Positions 65-6,825 of a stretch of 64,000 nucleotides of DNA are shown piece after piece. The DNA lies in NCBI GenBank assembly GCA_963697335.1, contig CAVONQ010000016.1:1-64000 (forward strand). Direction: 5' to 3'. The first letter of the stretch is position 1. Every line of letters begins with the position of its first letter. The position numbers and the translations under genes are program-made. This DNA comes from an uncultured cyanobacterium (GTDB lineage: Bacteria; Cyanobacteriota; Cyanobacteriia; PCC-6307; Cyanobiaceae). Below the pieces are notes generated by a model, which was not told where the DNA came from, did not search any database, and saw only the letters and a program-made list of their open reading frames with translations.

Positions 65-707
65 TCATCGGGTTGGGCCGTAGAGGGTGGATATCCAGAT
101 GCGGCAGAGGCTCTGGTACACAAGTTCGGGATCTCCATGGCGAGGGGAGCCGAACTCCTTGATCAGCACAAACGCGTCCATGCGGTTGAGGGCAACGGCG
201 ATGGCACCGGCCGGCAGAGGAGCGATCAGGCCGCGGGCCTGCTGCGCCTCGATCCGTGACGCCACGGCCGCATCGAAGGTGCTGAGGAAGTCGTTCCAGA
301 CCTTCTCGAGAACAGCATCAAAAGGGGCGGCCTCGGCGGCGGCCCGCAGGATGGTCCCCTTCTGGCGGCCCACCTCGACCAGCCCCCTCAGGGATTGGCG
401 CGGCGCTGCTGCGGGTCCTCCTCCGTTGTGAACCACGGTGCGGCTGCTTCCAGGATCGCCTCCTGGCACTCCAAGAGCAGGGTGCGCATCAGGGCGTAGA
501 GGTCCTCGAAGTAGAGGTAAAAGGTGGGACGGCTGGCGCGACTTCCGCCATCAACAGGGCCACGGTGAGGTCGCGGAACGGCTGATGGCCGAGGAAGCGC
601 GCTGCGGCCTCGAGGATCGCCAGGCGGGTGCGTGCCGCCTTGCGCGGAACGGCGAGACGCTCAGGCGTCAGCCGTGGGCGATGGCTTGGGACCTGGGGAT
701 CTGACAA
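65..707 (-). pseudogene. TetR/AcrR (EthR-like) transcriptional regulator broken by two frameshifts
   Basis: Frame 1 gives the HTH start (RTRLAILEAAARFLGHQPFRDLTVALLMAEV). A shift near 540 continues ASRPTFYLYFEDLYALMRTLL. A second shift near 405 continues QSLRGLVEVGRQKG...CRIWISTLYG. May be indel sequencing errors. Confidence 0.75.
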
Positions 708-740: not shown

Positions 741-1066
741 CACAGCCGGCTCGAAGGGTACGCCGATCTACGCGGCGGCCGGGCCGGCGCCATCGAGCGA
801 TCGATCAAATCCCTGCCGCGATGATCGATGGAATGGCGCAAGCAGGAGATGCCGCTGAGGGCTGGAGCCCCCGAAAGCCATGGGGCACCAGTGACCGTTA
901 TGGATCCCCAGAGAACGAAGGACCCAGCCTTTGCATCCGCCTGATCTCCGGTAGGCGATGCCATCGCGCTCGACCTTGCGGCTGCTCTGATCGGGAAGCA
1001 TCCGGAAGAACCACCCGCGAGAGTCCGCCAGCGCAGGCCAGGCCCTTCCCCTCCGATTCACCCCAG

Positions 1067-1169
1067 AGCGAACGCTGGCCATCACCTGCTCGCAGAGAGC
1101 TGAAGCGATAGCAGTGCGAAGGGATCTGTGAATCTACGGCGGCGGGTCAGGTGCATGGCCGTGTTAGAG
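1067..1169 (-). other. attC site closing the mazEF cassette (103 bp)
   Basis: Minus strand: R'' CTCTAAC (contains the mazF TAA), 5-nt spacer, L'' CATGCACC with extra G, variable loop, L' GGTGATG, 6-nt spacer, R' GTTCGCT. Second extrahelical A in CTGACCCGC/GCGAGCAG. Confidence 0.9.
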
Positions 1170-1523
1170 AGTGGCAGCATTGTCAGGAAGAAGCAGAGGC
1201 AAGATCCTTGTCGTAACCATCGCCAGAAGCTCAGTCGATGTTCTGTCAATCAGCTTCGCCTTCCTTGCTCGCCAGTCAAGGCTCTTGAGCTGATCTGCAA
1301 GAACGACACCAATCACCCCACTACCCTCTGGCAATGCGACTTCAAATGGATAACCCTTGACTCGAGACGTCACTGGACAGAACAAGGCTAGTCCAACTTT
1401 TGCGTTGTAGGCCTTCGGCGAGATCACCAAGGCAGGCCGCCTTCCAGCCTGTTCACTACCTGTCTGCGGTGTGAATTCAAGCCAGACCAAATCTCCTCGA
1501 TCAGGGACATAGGCAGCTGACAC
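1164..1523 (-). CDS. mazF: MazF/PemK endoribonuclease toxin
   Basis: YVPDRGDLVWLEFTPQTGSEQAGRRPALVISP...CPVTS...DQLKSLDWRAR; GTG start overlaps the mazE stop. Confidence 0.95.
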   Translation of the reverse strand: MSAAYVPDRGDLVWLEFTPQTGSEQAGRRPALVISPKAYNAKVGLALFCPVTSRVKGYPFEVALPEGSGVIGVVLADQLKSLDWRARKAKLIDRTSTELLAMVTTRILPLLLPDNAATL

Positions 1524-1765
1524 TAGAAGATCTCCGCACCGACAGCCGATCCCGTATCAATAGACGAATGAAGATTGCTTTCTGAAACCTCTGCCAAGAG
1601 ATCATCAAGACTGAGGCGAGTAGGGAGAGCTGGCTTCACGACCAGCTCGCCATCCTTGGCACTCAGGCTCACTTCAGTGCCAGCACCCAGGCCAACCTCC
1701 TCAGCCAGTCCACGCGGGATCCGAACCCCGAGACTGTTTCCCCATTTTTGGACCCGCGTCTGCAT
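1523..1765 (-). CDS. mazE: MazE/AbrB-type antitoxin
   Basis: MQTRVQKWGNSLGVRIP...SLDDLLAEV...GAEIF; start refined to the ATG at 1765. Confidence 0.93.
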   Translation of the reverse strand: MQTRVQKWGNSLGVRIPRGLAEEVGLGAGTEVSLSAKDGELVVKPALPTRLSLDDLLAEVSESNLHSSIDTGSAVGAEIF

Positions 1766-1871
1766 GGCAATCATGCGGCTATACGCGCGAAGTTGGTCAG
1801 TGACCAGCGCTTTGCGCTCACACTGGCGCGTGGAGTCGCTGGTCGCCACCCGAAGAGCATGTGAGCTAACC

Positions 1872-1958
1872 TTCTAACGATTAGCCGAGCCGCACCGCCG
1901 TTCTTGACGGAACGGCGTTCGGCTAGCAGGCGGTGTCGGCTCGAGCTTGCTGTTGCTT
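1872..1958 (-). other. attC site closing the ORF-less cassette (87 bp)
   Basis: Minus: AAGCAAC AGCAA GC(T)CGAGCCG(A)CACCGCC ... GGCGGTGCGGCTCGGC TAATC GTTAGAA; two extrahelical bases on the R'' arm. Confidence 0.88.
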
Positions 1959-2012
1959 AGCCGTGCAGGTATTCTAGACACCCACAACAACCGTAAAAAC
2001 ACGGTCTAGCAA
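1878..2012 (-). mobile_element. ORF-less integron cassette (135 bp)
   Basis: Starts (G)TTGCTA and ends in an attC whose R'' AAGCAAC complements it at 6/7; only 48 bp of internal sequence. Confidence 0.8.
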
Positions 2013-2060
2013 CGATTATGGATAGATCGTGCGCAGCCACGATCTTATCCGAAGTTGAAC
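2007..2060 (-). other. Short atypical attC-like hairpin (54 bp) closing cassette 1
   Basis: Minus: GTTCAAC TTC GGATA(A)GATCGTG GCTGCG CACGATCTATCC ATAATC GTTGCTA; one extrahelical A at the canonical L'' position, but an 8-nt L'-R' spacer. Confidence 0.7.
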
Positions 2061-2300
2061 AAGCCTGCAGCTCTGGGGCCCAGGGCTTACTGCAGAAACA
2101 TCCGGCGGTATTTCATAATGGCTTTATCTTCTGCCATGGGTAGAAACACCTGTCCTGCTCAAACCATTTCTGTGATGACTGGCTTCTGCTCAGTTTAGGG
2201 GCGCAGCCGAGCCTCCAGGCCAGTTCTCTCCTTCTGAACCAGCCTGGATGGGGCAAGTAGGGCTATGGGCAGGCTTATCTTCCGCTCCTTCCTTGAGCGT

Positions 2301-3359
2301 TTAGCTGAGCAGTGGTCTCATTCCTCGCACACGCACAGCAAGGATTTCCATCACGCCGCCGCACTGGGGACACAGCACCGCTGGCTTGTGGCTCGGCTCA
2401 GAGCGATCGGGTAGCACGACCCTCAGCAGGAGTTGCACCAACTGGATCAGGCGCTTGCCGTTGCCATGCAGCAGGCCAAAATCACGTACGCGCCGAAACC
2501 GTCTTGGCAGTACATGCCTCAGCAGCAACCAGAGGAAGTCAGCACCTGAGATGGTCTGGATGATCTCCTTTCCCGCATTGTCCTTGGTGCGGAATGTCAC
2601 CATCCCATCCTCGTCAGAGAGAATGTTCTTCTCTGGCAGGACTCCACGGTAGAGGTAGCGTCCAAGATAGATCAGTGCCTTCTCGCCACGGCCCACTGAT
2701 TTGCAGTGCACCACCCACTCTCGTGGGATCGTGCTTTTGACCTGCAGGCCTAACTGTCGCATCCCCTCAAACCATTTTGCACGGAATACCCTGGCAAGGT
2801 TGGCCTCAGGAAACAGATAGCCCTTGGCTTTGCTGCGCCATTCCCTTCTTTGCTCATGGATCGCACCTGCAGGCACAATCAGATGCACGTGAGGATGGTA
2901 GTCAAGTCGGCGGTTGTGCGTGTGCAGCACTGCGTGCGCTCCGATCTTGCCGCTGAGCTTTGGATCACGGCGAGCGAAGGAATCGATCGTTTGCCAGCAC
3001 GTTCTCAGCAGCAGATCATAGGTTGCTCTTTGATGCTGCCAGAACACCGGCCTCAGCTCAGCCGGCACCGTGAAGGTGATCAGGAAATACTCCACCGGCA
3101 GCAGCTTGGCTCGTTGTCGTTCAATCCACTGCTGGCTTTCATGATGCTGGCAATGGGGGCAACTGCGATGGCCACAGGAATGGGGGATCTTGGCGCTGTG
3201 CTCACAATTGGAACATTGCAGCACCATCAGGTCGCTGCCTTGTCGGCGGCAGCGCCGCATCGCTTGCAGGGCCTGGCGATGACTCGGCAGTAGCTGAGGA
3301 CCATGAAGCCGCTCCAAGTCGCCCTGGTAGCGCTCCACCAAGTGGGAGAGAAGAATCAT
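2301..3359 (-). CDS. IS91-family rolling-circle transposase (Zn-binding domain plus Y2 HUH domain)
   Basis: CSNC...SCGHRSCPHC Zn-binding N-terminus, TFTVP, HTH...YHPHVH (HUH), YLGRY (YxxxY), HVLP..F.RVR.FG, C-terminal CPQC. Confidence 0.93.
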   Translation of the reverse strand: MILLSHLVERYQGDLERLHGPQLLPSHRQALQAMRRCRRQGSDLMVLQCSNCEHSAKIPHSCGHRSCPHCQHHESQQWIERQRAKLLPVEYFLITFTVPAELRPVFWQHQRATYDLLLRTCWQTIDSFARRDPKLSGKIGAHAVLHTHNRRLDYHPHVHLIVPAGAIHEQRREWRSKAKGYLFPEANLARVFRAKWFEGMRQLGLQVKSTIPREWVVHCKSVGRGEKALIYLGRYLYRGVLPEKNILSDEDGMVTFRTKDNAGKEIIQTISGADFLWLLLRHVLPRRFRRVRDFGLLHGNGKRLIQLVQLLLRVVLPDRSEPSHKPAVLCPQCGGVMEILAVRVRGMRPLLS

Positions 3360-4264
3360 GATTCCTCCGCCCAGCGCAGCTGGAAGCCGTTCAGCAGCGT
3401 TTCAATGCGATCACCGGTGTGATCGCGCACCACCTGGGTGATGTGGGCGTAGCGGGCCGTGGTGTTGCTATGGCTGTGGCCGAGCAGGGATTGGATCAGG
3501 CGCAGGTCCATTCCCTGCTCCAGCAGGTGGGTGGCATAGGCATGGCGCAGCGAGTGCACCGTGAGTCGCTTCTCGATCCCACACTCCAGCCGGGCTGCTC
3601 TGAGGGCTGCCTGCACACCGCTGGCATCCATCGGTGCACTGGCGATCCGCACGATGAACTGGCTGCCGGCCGGACTGGGAAAGAGCAGCCGCGGATGGCG
3701 GTGGGTCGTCCAGAAGCGACGCATGGCCTGCAGCGTCAGCACCGGTATCGGCACGTAGCGATCCTTGCCTCCCTTGCCATCGCGGATGTGCACGCGCCGC
3801 TGGCTGCCATCAATGTCCGCCACCTCCAGCGCCAGGCCCTCGCCGATCCGCAGGCCAAGGCTGTAGACCACCAGCAGGAAAATCCGATAGCGCAACTTGC
3901 GCACCGTATTGATCAGCCGATGCACTTCCTCGCGGGTGGGAACATCTGGCAGACTGCGCACACGTGGCGGGCGGATGATCTTGATCCACTCCATCTCGCG
4001 ATCAAGCACATAGCGGTGGAAGAATTGCAGACTGCAGAGATCAATCTTAATCGTGCTCCACGAATACTGCTCCAGCAAAGCAGTGAAGTACCCTTTCAAG
4101 TCATCAGGGCTGAGATCATCGGGGCAACGATTGAAATGGCCAGCCACGCGCCGCAACGTTCGGCTGTAGCTGTCAATTGTCTTGCTGCGTAAGCCGTGCA
4201 GCCTCATCGCCTTTACGTTCGCGTCAAACAGGCGATCAAAGCGCTCCTGTTCAGTAGGATCCAT
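3356..4264 (-). CDS. Site-specific tyrosine recombinase (IntI/XerD-like)
   Basis: GLRIGE, GKGGKDR, HSLRH.YATHLLE.G.DLR.IQ.LLGH...TT.RY; its stop overlaps the transposase start (ATGA). Confidence 0.95.
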   Translation of the reverse strand: MDPTEQERFDRLFDANVKAMRLHGLRSKTIDSYSRTLRRVAGHFNRCPDDLSPDDLKGYFTALLEQYSWSTIKIDLCSLQFFHRYVLDREMEWIKIIRPPRVRSLPDVPTREEVHRLINTVRKLRYRIFLLVVYSLGLRIGEGLALEVADIDGSQRRVHIRDGKGGKDRYVPIPVLTLQAMRRFWTTHRHPRLLFPSPAGSQFIVRIASAPMDASGVQAALRAARLECGIEKRLTVHSLRHAYATHLLEQGMDLRLIQSLLGHSHSNTTARYAHITQVVRDHTGDRIETLLNGFQLRWAEES

Positions 4265-4480
4265 CGAAGTGGCTTCCCGTTGGGAAGATGAAGGGAATCA
4301 ACGCATCAGTCGATGCGCATCCCTCAGTGTCTTCCCGGAATCAGTCGCCAGCCACAACCCAGCGGGGGCTGCTCAGCTCTCGCCCTGAGCATCATTCTGC
4401 GACATGCCCTCAAGGCGCAGAGCCTTGAATTGACAAGAGTTTGCTATGATCGTTCTTGGAATCTGCCGCGCAGCGGCTTA

Positions 4481-4511
4481 GTTCAACGCTGATTAGGCGG
4501 GTCCGGTAACC
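4481..4511 (-). other. Putative attI site (crossover G|TT at 4487/4486)
   Basis: Minus ...GGTTACCGGACCCGCCTAATCAGC G|TTGAAC. It lies between the intI 3' end and cassette 1, with no attC hairpin in front of this GTT. Confidence 0.6.
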
Positions 4512-4641
4512 GTCCCCTTGGAGGTCCACCGACCAGAATAAGTTTGTCACCTGCTCCTCGCAACGGCTCAGAAGCTATGCCAACACTGCCTCTTGGGTTC
4601 AAGTCCTCAATCCCTCGGCAGTTTATGCGGACCCGTTAACC
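4493..4641. repeat. Two 19-bp imperfect direct repeats (4493-4511 and 4623-4641), each quasi-palindromic
   Basis: TTAGGCGGGTCCGGTAACC vs TTATGCGGACCCGTTAACC, 15/19 identical, 130 bp apart. Confidence 0.7.
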
Positions 4642-4655
4642 ATCTGTTCGTCTTG

Positions 4656-5627
4656 CTACAGAAGGTCTACTGGGCTGCTCACGCCCAGCGGTCCTTTGTT
4701 CAACACGTGGGTGTAGATCATCGTGGTTTTGACGTCACTGTGACCCAGCAGTTCCTGGATCGTACGGATGTCCTGGCCCCGCTCCAGCAGATGGGTGGCG
4801 AAGGAGTGGCGGAAGGTGTGGCAAGTGGCTGGTTTGGTGAGGCCAGCCGAGAGCACGGCTCGGCGCACTGCCTTCTGAATCAGGCTGGGGTCGAGATGAT
4901 GTCGCCCCTGTTCGCCGGTTGAGGCGTCGCACCACCGTTGATGCTGGGGAAACACCCACTGCCAGCCCCACTCCACACCGGCATTCGGATACTTCCGGCC
5001 CAGCGCATGCGGCAACAACACTCGCCCCCACCCCTGGGACAGATCCTGCCGATGGATCTGTCTGACTTCCTCAAGGTGCCCTCTGAGCTGGGCTCCAAGG
5101 CGCTCCGGCAACAGGGTGCGGCGATCCTTGCCCCCTTTGCCATCCCGCACCATCAGCTCGTGTCGGCCGAAGTCGAGGTCGTGCACCCGCAGCCGCAGCG
5201 CCTCGATCAGCCGCAGCCCGCTGCCGTACAGCAGCCCAGCCACCAGTGCCTCCACCCCATCCAGTCTTTGCAGCACAGCGCTTACTTCCTCCGGCGTCAG
5301 CACCACGGGTAGCCGTGGGCGCTTGCGGGCCCGCACCACCCCCTCCAGCTCCAGATCGCGATCCAGCAGTTCGCGGTACAGAAACAGCAGAGCCGCGAGG
5401 GCCTGGTTCTGGGTGGAGGCGCTTACTTGCCGTTCCACGGCCAGATGGCTGAGGAAGGCGTTCACCTCGGCGCTGCCCATCTCCCGGGGGTGGCGCAGGT
5501 GGTGGAACCGCAGAAAGCGCCTGAGCCACTGTTCGTAGGTGTTCACCGTTCGGCGGGCGTAGTGCCGCACCTGCAGTTCCTCCCGGTAGCGCTGGATCAG
5601 TCCTGGCGGGCGTGGGTTGGGCTCCAT
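4656..5627 (-). CDS. intI: Integron integrase
   Basis: [17 protein letters not shown]...[16 protein letters not shown], IntI-specific insertion [59 protein letters not shown]; start refined to ATG 5627. Confidence 0.97.
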
Positions 5628-5688
5628 CACGGTTGGCGCTGCTTCCTCTTCAGCATTCCCACGCCACAGGCCGCTTTCTACGCTGCCC

Positions 5689-6825
5689 ATGCTTCCTGCC
5701 GGCTTCTCCTTGATCCCTTGCCTGCCAGACGGCATCCAGGCCCGGCCAGAGGTGGAGAGCCTGCAGGCCTACAGCGCCCCACTGGAGGGCCGCCGCGGCT
5801 TGCTGCGCCTGGATTTCAATGAGAACACCGTGGGCCCCAGCCCCCGGGTGGTGGAGGCGCTGCGCGCCATCCCCGCAGACCACTACGCCATCTACCCCGA
5901 ATACGACGGCCTGCGCGAGGCGCTGCTGGCCAACCTCAGCGTTTCCCCCTCAGGCCTGGCCCGGCCCCTCGCCCCGGCCCAGGTCGGCCTGTTCAACGGG
6001 GTGGATGCGGCGATCCACGCCCTCTTTCACGCCTACGGCAACCGGGGCGACCGGCTGCTCACCACCAGCCCCACCTTCGGCTACTACAGCCCCTGTGCCC
6101 AGATGCAGGGCATGGCGATCACCGCCATCCCCTACGAGCTGCCCGATTTCGCCTTTCCGCTCGAGGCGATCCGCCAGGCCCTGCTCGCGCAGCCCTGCCC
6201 GCGCATCCTGCTGCTCTGCAACCCCAACAACCCCACCGGCACCCGCCTGGCGCCAGCAGCAATCCTGGAGCTGGCTGCCGCCGCGCCGGCCACGCTGGTG
6301 GTGGTGGATGAGCTCTACGAGGCCTTCACGGGCGACAGCGTGCTGCCCACGGCCGACTTCGCCGCCACGCCCAACCTGCTGGTGTTGCGCTCCCTGGCCA
6401 AGACGGCCGGCCTGGCCGGGCTGCGCATCGGCTTTGCGATCGGCGCTGAGGCGGTGGTGGATCGCCTCAGCCGCGTCACCGGCCCCTACGACATCAACAG
6501 CTTCGCGGTCACGGCGGCCCTGGCGGCCTTGGCCGATCAGCCCTACACCGATGCCTACGTGGCCGAGGTGCTGCGCGCCCGCCACTGGCTCGTGGGCCAG
6601 CTGCAGCAGCAGGGCGTGCGGCACCACGCCGCCGGCGGCAACTACCTGCTGCTCTGGCCCGAGAGCCCGGCTGAGGAGGTGGAGCGGCGCCTCAGGCAGG
6701 CCGGCATCCTGGTGCGCTCCATGGCGGGTAAGCCGCTGATCGGGGGCTCCTTGCGGGTGAGCCTCGGCACCACCGCCCAGATGCAGCAGTTCTGGGCCGC
6801 CTACACGGCCATCACTACCCCCTGA
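5689..6825 (+). CDS. hisC: Histidinol-phosphate aminotransferase family PLP enzyme
   Basis: [36 protein letters not shown]; start approximate. Confidence 0.85.

Follow-up and report, generated by a model that had tools for sequence, protein, structure and literature searches.

Background

Circles of IS91 carry the oriIS and terIS ends joined together, and only one strand, not the duplex form, is inserted; terIS is a subterminal palindrome next to a GTTC cleavage site, and the upstream orf121 overlaps tnpA (PMC13181058, accessible part). The recombinases associated with IS91 elements have been described as the closest relatives of the integron integrase IntI, without its insertion, and as forming an 'Integron-like' subgroup (Smyshlyaev et al., bioRxiv 10.1101/542381, accessible part). 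ISShvi3 adjoins an attC site in a Shewanella integron, for which the accessible text offers a passing remark, 'a new gene cassette structure' (PMC9229058). Here we analyze an element from an uncultured cyanobacterium of the family Cyanobiaceae, in a stretch of 64,000 nucleotides (contig CAVONQ010000016.1, positions 1 to 64,000) hereafter referred to as the window. The element occupies positions 2013-4486 on the minus strand (about 2.5 kb); it is intact, carries two genes (rec and tnp) and lies between the attI region of an integron and a short cassette (cas2), at the attI crossover of the host integron and in cassette orientation. We consider it probable that this is an intact autonomous element of the IS91 family, with an IntI-like tyrosine recombinase (Rec) encoded upstream of a Y2/HUH transposase (Tnp) and with cassette-like ends, and that it is specialized on integron recombination sites.

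Members of the IS91 family with an upstream tyrosine recombinase are entered in ISfinder, and this gene layout is already known. In the accessible parts of the literature searched on IS91, tyrosine recombinases, integrons and attC, we found no account of the target rule, of cassette-like ends or of attI/attC targeting. The new features are the insertion at attI in a cyanobacterial inverted integron, an end architecture that is found across phyla and is accompanied by covariation, the copies in a genome without an IntI above cut-off, the mini-elements and a permuted copy.

The element shares with the IS91 family (IS91, IS801 and IS1294) a Y2/HUH transposase with an N-terminal zinc-binding domain, a GTTC beside a ter-like palindrome, the lack of a target-site duplication and, as for orf121 in IS91, the overlap between the stop codon of the upstream gene and the start of tnp. 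The two ends differ, each has a subterminal palindrome, and they lack the structure of a terminal inverted-repeat transposon, which also agrees with the definition of the family (PMC13181058, accessible part). However, its targets are R-box-like AA|C sites (the vertical bar marks the crossover throughout), its upstream gene is predicted to encode a catalytically complete tyrosine recombinase, and its hairpin end has the architecture of attC, with a strong bias towards integron sites. The recombinase-bearing IS91 members have the same two-gene layout and a recombinase lacking the IntI insertion, but neither the target rule nor cassette-like ends nor insertion at attI is described for them in the accessible sources.

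The likeness to integron cassettes extends to the G|TT limits, a 5' TTGAAC complementary to the R'' of the element itself, a predicted R'' of the form RYYYAAC, an imperfect stem with an unpaired base and an R' GTT, and to the first position at attI in cassette orientation, an inverted mode at R'' being also observed. Unlike cassettes, the element encodes its own mobility enzymes, has ends conserved across phyla and a 5' palindrome, multiplies without IntI and lands outside integrons. The IS1111-attC group (IS110 family) and the group IIC-attC introns are likewise mobile elements specialized on integron recombination sites, but their enzymes and chemistry differ and they do not mimic cassettes; we know of no report of either at attI.

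Limits and ends of the element

A paralogous empty site (C7:221346-221508) contains both flanks of the window element joined together (...CAGCG|TTGCTTAGACC; in full, ...GGTTACCGGACCCGGATAATCAGCG|TTGCTTAGACCGTG...), and six more uninterrupted attI-cas2 junctions were found in relatives: G106 (two), G173 (two), G132 and G058. Because these sites join the flanks exactly, the insert corresponds to 2013-4486 to within the shared AAC, without any duplication. Only AAC/GTT is shared, so the crossover is ambiguous by 3 nt; on the attI side it is C4487|A4486 (minus-strand G|TT). The AA|C (G|TT) junctions are invariant: the left flank (hairpin side) ends in AA (as NYAA) in 11/11 junctions and in 9/9 further ones, and the first base of the right flank is C in 19 of 20 junctions, the exception being a tandem junction with a mini-element. 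A second genomic copy (C2:1-2456) corresponds to window positions 2033-4488 at 99.1% identity, with an identical Rec and a Tnp 98.9% identical; its other end was lost at the contig start.

In cassette orientation, the 5' end reads G|TTGAAC-TAAGCC-GCTGCGCGGC... and includes the ter-like palindrome. This end is almost invariant in the 20/20 right junctions of the cyanobacterial family, and it is also kept, in the general form G|TTGAAC-N-AAGCC followed by a palindrome, in the elements from Nitrincola, Vibrio, Granulosicoccaceae, Victivallales, Chloroflexota and Gemmatimonadota. GTTGAAC is found at 4487-4481 and GTTCAAC at 2060-2054 (minus strand), and the opposite end contains an imperfect hairpin, GGATAGATCGTG/CACGATCTTATCC, at 2020-2050, 7 nt from the terminus, in which a single T (A on the complementary strand) is unpaired. 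The hairpin end is identical or nearly so in all cyanobacterial copies (11/11 left junctions). Apart from a single additional A, the first 12 nt of the element are complementary to GGCTTGTTCAAC at the opposite end, and a circular form would thus contain a full R''/L''/L'/R' site with one unpaired base.

In a 13-row alignment of 3' ends (A3), 98.1% of the stem cells were paired and 5 of the 12 pairs were altered on both sides; none of 500 shuffles reached the observed values, and slid partners paired in at most 48% of the cells. This subset was used in place of a MAFFT alignment of 20 diverse 3' ends (A2), the structural register of which was off and the pairs of which were not counted. The fold energy of a single sequence was discarded as proof, as it does not set the hairpin apart. 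We therefore regard the predicted hairpin as real on the grounds of conservation and covariation, not of energy.

All right ends share, at the same position, a conserved TATGAT/TATAAT-like box (window positions 4440-4456), which lies on the plus strand some 30 nt in from the palindrome end and points outward; it was not called by the promoter scan. The promoter and terminator scan of positions 1000-5800 gave no prediction in cas2 or at the ends of the element.

An earlier note, made from the DNA alone, had described a two-gene unit beginning with GTTGAAC and ending with GTTCAAC and an attC-like hairpin, the removal of which would join attI cleanly to the next cassette without duplication; the empty sites and the end sequences agree with this description, and the open reading frames (ORFs) and Pfam/NCBIfam matches bear out the gene pair. 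Its suggestion that the junction of a circle would fold into attC is supported too: the joined ends form a full attC-like site (R'' GTTCAAC / R' GTTGAAC), and natural examples of this joined form are G022 copy 2 and a tandem in G162. The hairpin does travel with the element, as it had supposed, in 11/11 left junctions and in 9/9 further ones.

Rec and Tnp

The stop codon of rec overlaps the start of tnp (ATGA). Rec matched the integron integrase profile TIGR02249 with 165.8 bits in two stretches, below the cut-off of 265, and is thus not an integron integrase by this measure. It is 32% identical to the IntI of the window, with 37 gap positions within IntI residues 205-290, and the gap takes in the segment carrying the IntI-specific insertion. 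The catalytic pattern R, K, H-x-x-R, H, Y is kept in full, and R139, K164, R240, H263 and Y272 are invariant in an alignment (A1) of 12 homologues with identities down to 59%. The motifs HPHVH and YLGRY of Tnp were read off the translation.

In a quick tree of 77 recombinases (16 near-duplicate rows dropped, midpoint root), in which the single Xer-like row formed a long branch, all 10 IntI sequences formed one clade apart from the Recs; this tree carries no information on ancestry.

Insertion sites in the cyanobacterial family

The family search covered 401 genomes, 110 of which match some part of 1850-4700; 13 other genomes have copies aligned over at least 1.7 kb. The 17 family copies comprise 12 at attI-type sites, one at an attC, two that are ambiguous and two outside integrons. 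Seven of the 12 adjoin an attI together with intI, an intI pseudogene or an intI fragment (the window, G077, G074, G026, G155, G088 and G022 copy 2), and the other five adjoin a complete attI-type module from which intI is missing (G022a, G165, G146b, G377 and G323). The attC copy lies at a HicB-like cassette, 920 bp from intI (G258), and the ambiguous copies have only the proximal motif adjoining (G162 and G235). The two copies outside integrons are C2, at a pilin-like locus, and G146a, inside a gene. A dif-like or other chromosomal site was considered for the flanks without intI and rejected, as these flanks retain the module of about 170 bp in its entirety, including the final codons of intI.

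The extra DNA in G022 copy 2 (8.3 kb) and in G077 (1.4 kb) was considered as cargo and rejected. In both cases it lies in the untranslated leader between the palindrome end and rec, and it consists of nested IS5-, IS3- and IS630-like insertions in the former (L040:10573-18859) and of an IS3-like insertion in the latter (L041:10846-12030). Copies of the cyanobacterial type were also observed in bins labelled Actinomycetota and Aquiluna (L061 and L075); these contigs are probably misbinned.

Autonomy, mini-elements, inverted and permuted copies

The complete chromosome of Nitrincola (G401) contains seven copies, 99.96-100% identical, at seven unrelated sites. No IntI above the cut-off was found in this chromosome (best TIGR02249 match 96 bits versus 265), and the element has thus multiplied in a genome without an IntI above cut-off. 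The hairpin side is flanked by TTA in all seven copies (TAA on the transferred strand). The Rec and Tnp of these elements are 48% and 40% identical, respectively, to those of the window and the ends are the same, the inner stem being changed from ATCGTG/CACGAT to GCGTCG/CGACGC.

Non-coding derivatives of about 300 bp were found in G162, G207, G053 and G118, one of them in tandem with a full copy and one at an attI-like flank. The retention of both ends in these mini-elements argues for a requirement in cis not only for the hairpin end but also for the palindrome end.

Two copies are inserted in an inverted mode. The hairpin end of the L072 copy adjoins ...TTCTAA|C on the coding strand of the array (the R'' side of an attC); the other copy, in a metagenome contig, meets a mazEF-type attC at its R'' side with the palindrome end. 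Since such copies exist, the common rule is, judging from the junction sequences, that the strand 5'-CGATT...GTTCAA-3' is inserted at RYYYAA|C on either strand of the R box.

The G022 copy 2, located at an attI 174 bp from intI, is circularly permuted. In plus orientation it reads flank-AA|CCGAAGTTGAAC ... GTTCAA|CGATTATGG-hairpin-CTTAT|C-attI, so that the 4486|2013 joint is present in a genomic sequence. By its sequence, this copy was opened at the outer edge of the other arm of the hairpin, which is where a recombinase bound to the second of two arms would cut, although the HUH enzyme may instead have cut in the wrong place.

Relatives in other phyla

A profile search with Rec identified 80 loci in many phyla, with tnp following rec in 73 of them. 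Among the 56 loci with at least 1 kb of upstream sequence, 11 have an IntI-like gene or fragment no more than 1.7 kb upstream of rec, in both integron orientations; the upstream intI is inverted in Cyanobacteriota, Gemmatimonadota, Rokubacteria and Planctomycetota and has the canonical divergent orientation in two Chloroflexota loci. A random locus would be expected to lie this close to intI about once in a thousand; since the loci are not independent, no test is given. At the loci adjoining intI, the G|TTGAAC of the element always abuts repeats of the expected attI kind, and one Chloroflexia contig contains intI followed by three copies of the element in the array. Across at least five phyla, the relatives thus show a strong bias for attI and attC positions. 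The elements from Chloroflexota, Gemmatimonadota, Planctomycetota, Thermodesulfobacteriota and other groups have in common the succession GGCTT(A)GTYCAAC, 2-5 nt, hairpin, 5-8 nt and G|TT, the hairpins being unrelated in sequence. In one Chloroflexota attI region (L100:4150-4360), the G|TTGAAC of the element is preceded by four or more repeats of the type TTATGCCGA / TCGGCATAA.

Proposed mechanism and alternative explanations

A relay of copy-out by Tnp and integration by Rec or IntI is possible, though somewhat doubtful as a complete scheme. Tnp would nick the hairpin end, copy out the strand antisense to the genes in an IS91-like manner and join both ends into a single-stranded circle. In this circle, GTTCAA|CGATT... 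would pair with ...GTTGAAC, giving an attC-like fold with the unpaired T on the 3' arm, which would match the bottom strand used in integron chemistry. The folded strand would then be exchanged at AA|C with any R-box-like RYYYAA|C by Rec, the nearest relative of IntI, or by the IntI of the host if there is one, and such targets would be supplied above all by attI and attC, and also by look-alikes.

Several points weigh against this scheme and the autonomous integron-specialized element on which it is built. The loci are related to each other, and the counts are therefore not counts of independent events. The hairpin of the window has a DNA-fold z-score of only -1.7 to -1.9, and its energy is unremarkable. 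Neither the 4486|2013 joint nor a precise-excision joint was found in the Logan contigs of relatives (four public runs, 0 raw reads), and no run contained half of the sequence words sought. A cut after GTTC, as in IS91, and one after GTTCAA would look the same because of the 3-nt AAC microhomology, so the sequences are ambiguous in this respect. The copied strand is taken to be the one antisense to tnp from the rolling-circle model and the adjacency of terIS and orf121. The assignment of region 4487-4655 as a putative attI follows from its position and conservation only. The target is AA|C and not the IS91 tetranucleotide GTTC/CTTG that adjoins oriIS. Finally, Rec may not necessarily be the integrase, as TnpA of IS91 alone inserts single-stranded circles (PMC13181058, accessible part).

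This last property is also an argument for pure IS91-type transposition, in which Tnp would both excise and insert, and Rec would be an accessory that, for instance, regulates termination as Orf121 does or acts as a resolvase. We regard this alternative as unlikely. The corresponding view of targeting, equally unlikely, is that the R boxes of integrons, RYYYAA|C sequences that often lie in foldable DNA, imitate the joined ends of the element, GTTCAA|C; the targets of the IS91 family do resemble the ter cleavage site (PMC13181058, accessible part). The conservation of the ter-like palindrome, which is present even in mini-elements, would be expected for such a mechanism, as would the use of either strand of attC-type sites (in L072 and in the metagenome contig) and the seven unrelated Nitrincola sites, which have only TAA| in common on the transferred strand. 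However, a target of 3-4 nt cannot account for the exact crossover nucleotide in 12 attI-type modules and at several attC sites when other YAA trinucleotides lie nearby. Moreover, the 3' end is built like a two-arm recombinase site with a conserved unpaired base, and the catalytic residues of Rec are all kept across a wide divergence.

It is quite improbable that the element is integrative and dependent on Rec only, with Rec excising and integrating it through the attC-like site as IntI does, and with Tnp as an amplifier or a passenger. The junctions are those expected of IntI-type recombination, and the breakpoint of G022 copy 2 coincides with the boundary of the other hairpin arm, where a tyrosine recombinase acting on the second arm would cut. 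Against this, rec and tnp are coupled and co-conserved (73/80 loci), and the 5' palindrome, superfluous for a cassette, is nearly invariant and present in the mini-elements. An ordinary passive cassette, with the two genes as cargo and the host IntI as the sole mover, is highly improbable: its cassette-like limits, its first position adjoining intI and the presence of intI somewhere in the genome in 10/10 element-bearing relatives tested would suit it, but the seven Nitrincola copies, the copies outside integrons, the conservation of the ends across phyla while host IntIs differ and the retention of both ends in mini-elements do not.

As to the idea of a selfish integron cassette put forward in the earlier note, the part concerning a discrete mobile element with cassette-like ends stands. 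It is not, however, merely an integron-dependent 'cassette 1', given the multiplication in Nitrincola, the C2 and G146a copies and the inverted mode at R''. The expectation that homologues would be located at attI/attC crossover points is supported in several phyla, and they do not lie mostly outside integrons.

Implications for integrons

To our knowledge, integrons are thought to contain passive cassettes only. The element described here combines what would be a self-made single strand with an attC-like site and an IntI-like enzyme, and it occupies the capture site of integrons in several phyla, where it may block or redirect the capture and expression of cassettes. As a simple system of two genes, it also allows folded-strand recombination to be studied in the absence of the IntI-specific domain, and it provides a concrete candidate source of attC sites; it bears on the origin of attC and the evolution of IntI-type single-strand recombination. 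One-ended transposition, with read-through at the ter end, is known for IS91. Because the joined ends make a ready-made attC and the recombinase is the nearest kin of IntI, the IS91-recombinase elements might be a bridge between rolling-circle transposons and integrons, in which read-through at ter would add the attC-like hairpin to neighbouring genes and so give rise to new cassettes, integrons being domesticated descendants; we consider this wider reading rather improbable.

The integron platform and neighbouring cassettes

The source genome consists of 18 contigs (2.58 Mb, about 68% G+C). On the minus strand, the first 5.7 kb of the window contain, in order, intI, a spacer of 169 bp, rec, tnp, the hairpin, 135 bp without an ORF and mazE-mazF (Table 1). 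The intI gene reads toward the cassettes, as in the 'inverted' type of integron, a layout known for cyanobacterial integrons.

Table 1. Coordinates of the features discussed in the text (window positions unless a locus is given)
Feature	Position	Strand	Description
intI, integron integrase	4656-5735	-	TIGR02249 465.8 bits (cut-off 265); PRK15417 345.9 bits; contains segment absent from Rec
Putative attI region	4487-4655	-	Between intI stop and first cassette; same module beside element or cas2 in relatives
5' ter-like end	4459-4486	-	TTGAAC-TAAGCC and palindrome GCCGC-GCA-GCGGC (4465-4477), 9 nt from terminus
rec, tyrosine recombinase, IntI-like group	3356-4264	-	302 aa; PF00589 (Phage_integrase) and PF13495 (SAM_4)
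tnp, IS91-family Y2 HUH transposase	2301-3359	-	352 aa; NF033538 351 bits (cut-off 125); PF04986 (Y2_Tnp) 138 bits; PF14319 (Zn_Tnp_IS91) 91.5 bits
3' attC-like end	2013-2066	-	GGCTT-GTTCAAC (R''), TTC, GGATAAGATCGTG, GCTGCG, CACGATCTATCC, ATAATC, G|; crossover 2013|2012
cas2, 135-bp ORF-less cassette	1878-2012	-	attC ends at G1878; attC-like fold z -3.7
mazEF toxin-antitoxin cassette	1073-1877	-	PemK/MazF and MazE domain matches; own attC at about 1073-1160
Derivatives of about 300 bp	L042:11923-12235; L156:1294-1596; L161:572-888; L151:2353-2654		Non-coding, both ends kept

The putative attI region contains a proximal site, GGCGGGTCCGGTAAC (4496-4510, plus strand), a second direct repeat about 35 nt further on and an inverted copy of the repeat at 4621-4641, adjoining the intI stop codon. 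Complete attI-type modules without intI were observed at L044, L046, L048, L049, L039 and L052. Because these modules share a common start point and keep the last intI codons (..TGTAGC..), their sequences suggest that the module as a whole was copied or relocated. A second intI-like gene, 56-72% identical, is located at a contig start (G000:C15:5-710), its attI side not being assembled; it lies in two frames and is probably frameshifted.

The start of cas2, GTTGCTAGACCGTG, is complementary to its own R'' region, CACGGCTAAGCAAC. This cassette is 78-97% conserved adjoining attI-type modules in G106, G173, G132, G058 and C7, and it is followed by different genes each time. It was observed across genera (window 1878-2012; C7:221373-221508; L052-L057), always directly adjoining an attI-type module, and cas2 may be a fixed component of the integron platform instead of a casual cassette. 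A TAGAAT box in cas2 was spotted by eye and discarded, the promoter scan giving no support. The attC of the mazEF cassette contains an imperfect inverted repeat, GGCCATGCACCTG/CAGGTGATGGCC, flanked by CTCTAAC and G|TTCGCT, and the same cassette directly follows the element in G162. A scan of the window against Rfam at the gathering threshold gave no matches.

A 5.4-kb duplicate (G000:C1:1-5363 and C7:221508-226877; 99.5% identity) starts exactly at the crossover after cas2 and codes for a protein of 968 aa without a Pfam match and for two PAD-like fragments. In the window, a TetR-type gene with an EthR_C domain lies just past the last cassette (65-707, minus strand) and is seemingly split into two ORFs (65-469 and 489-707).

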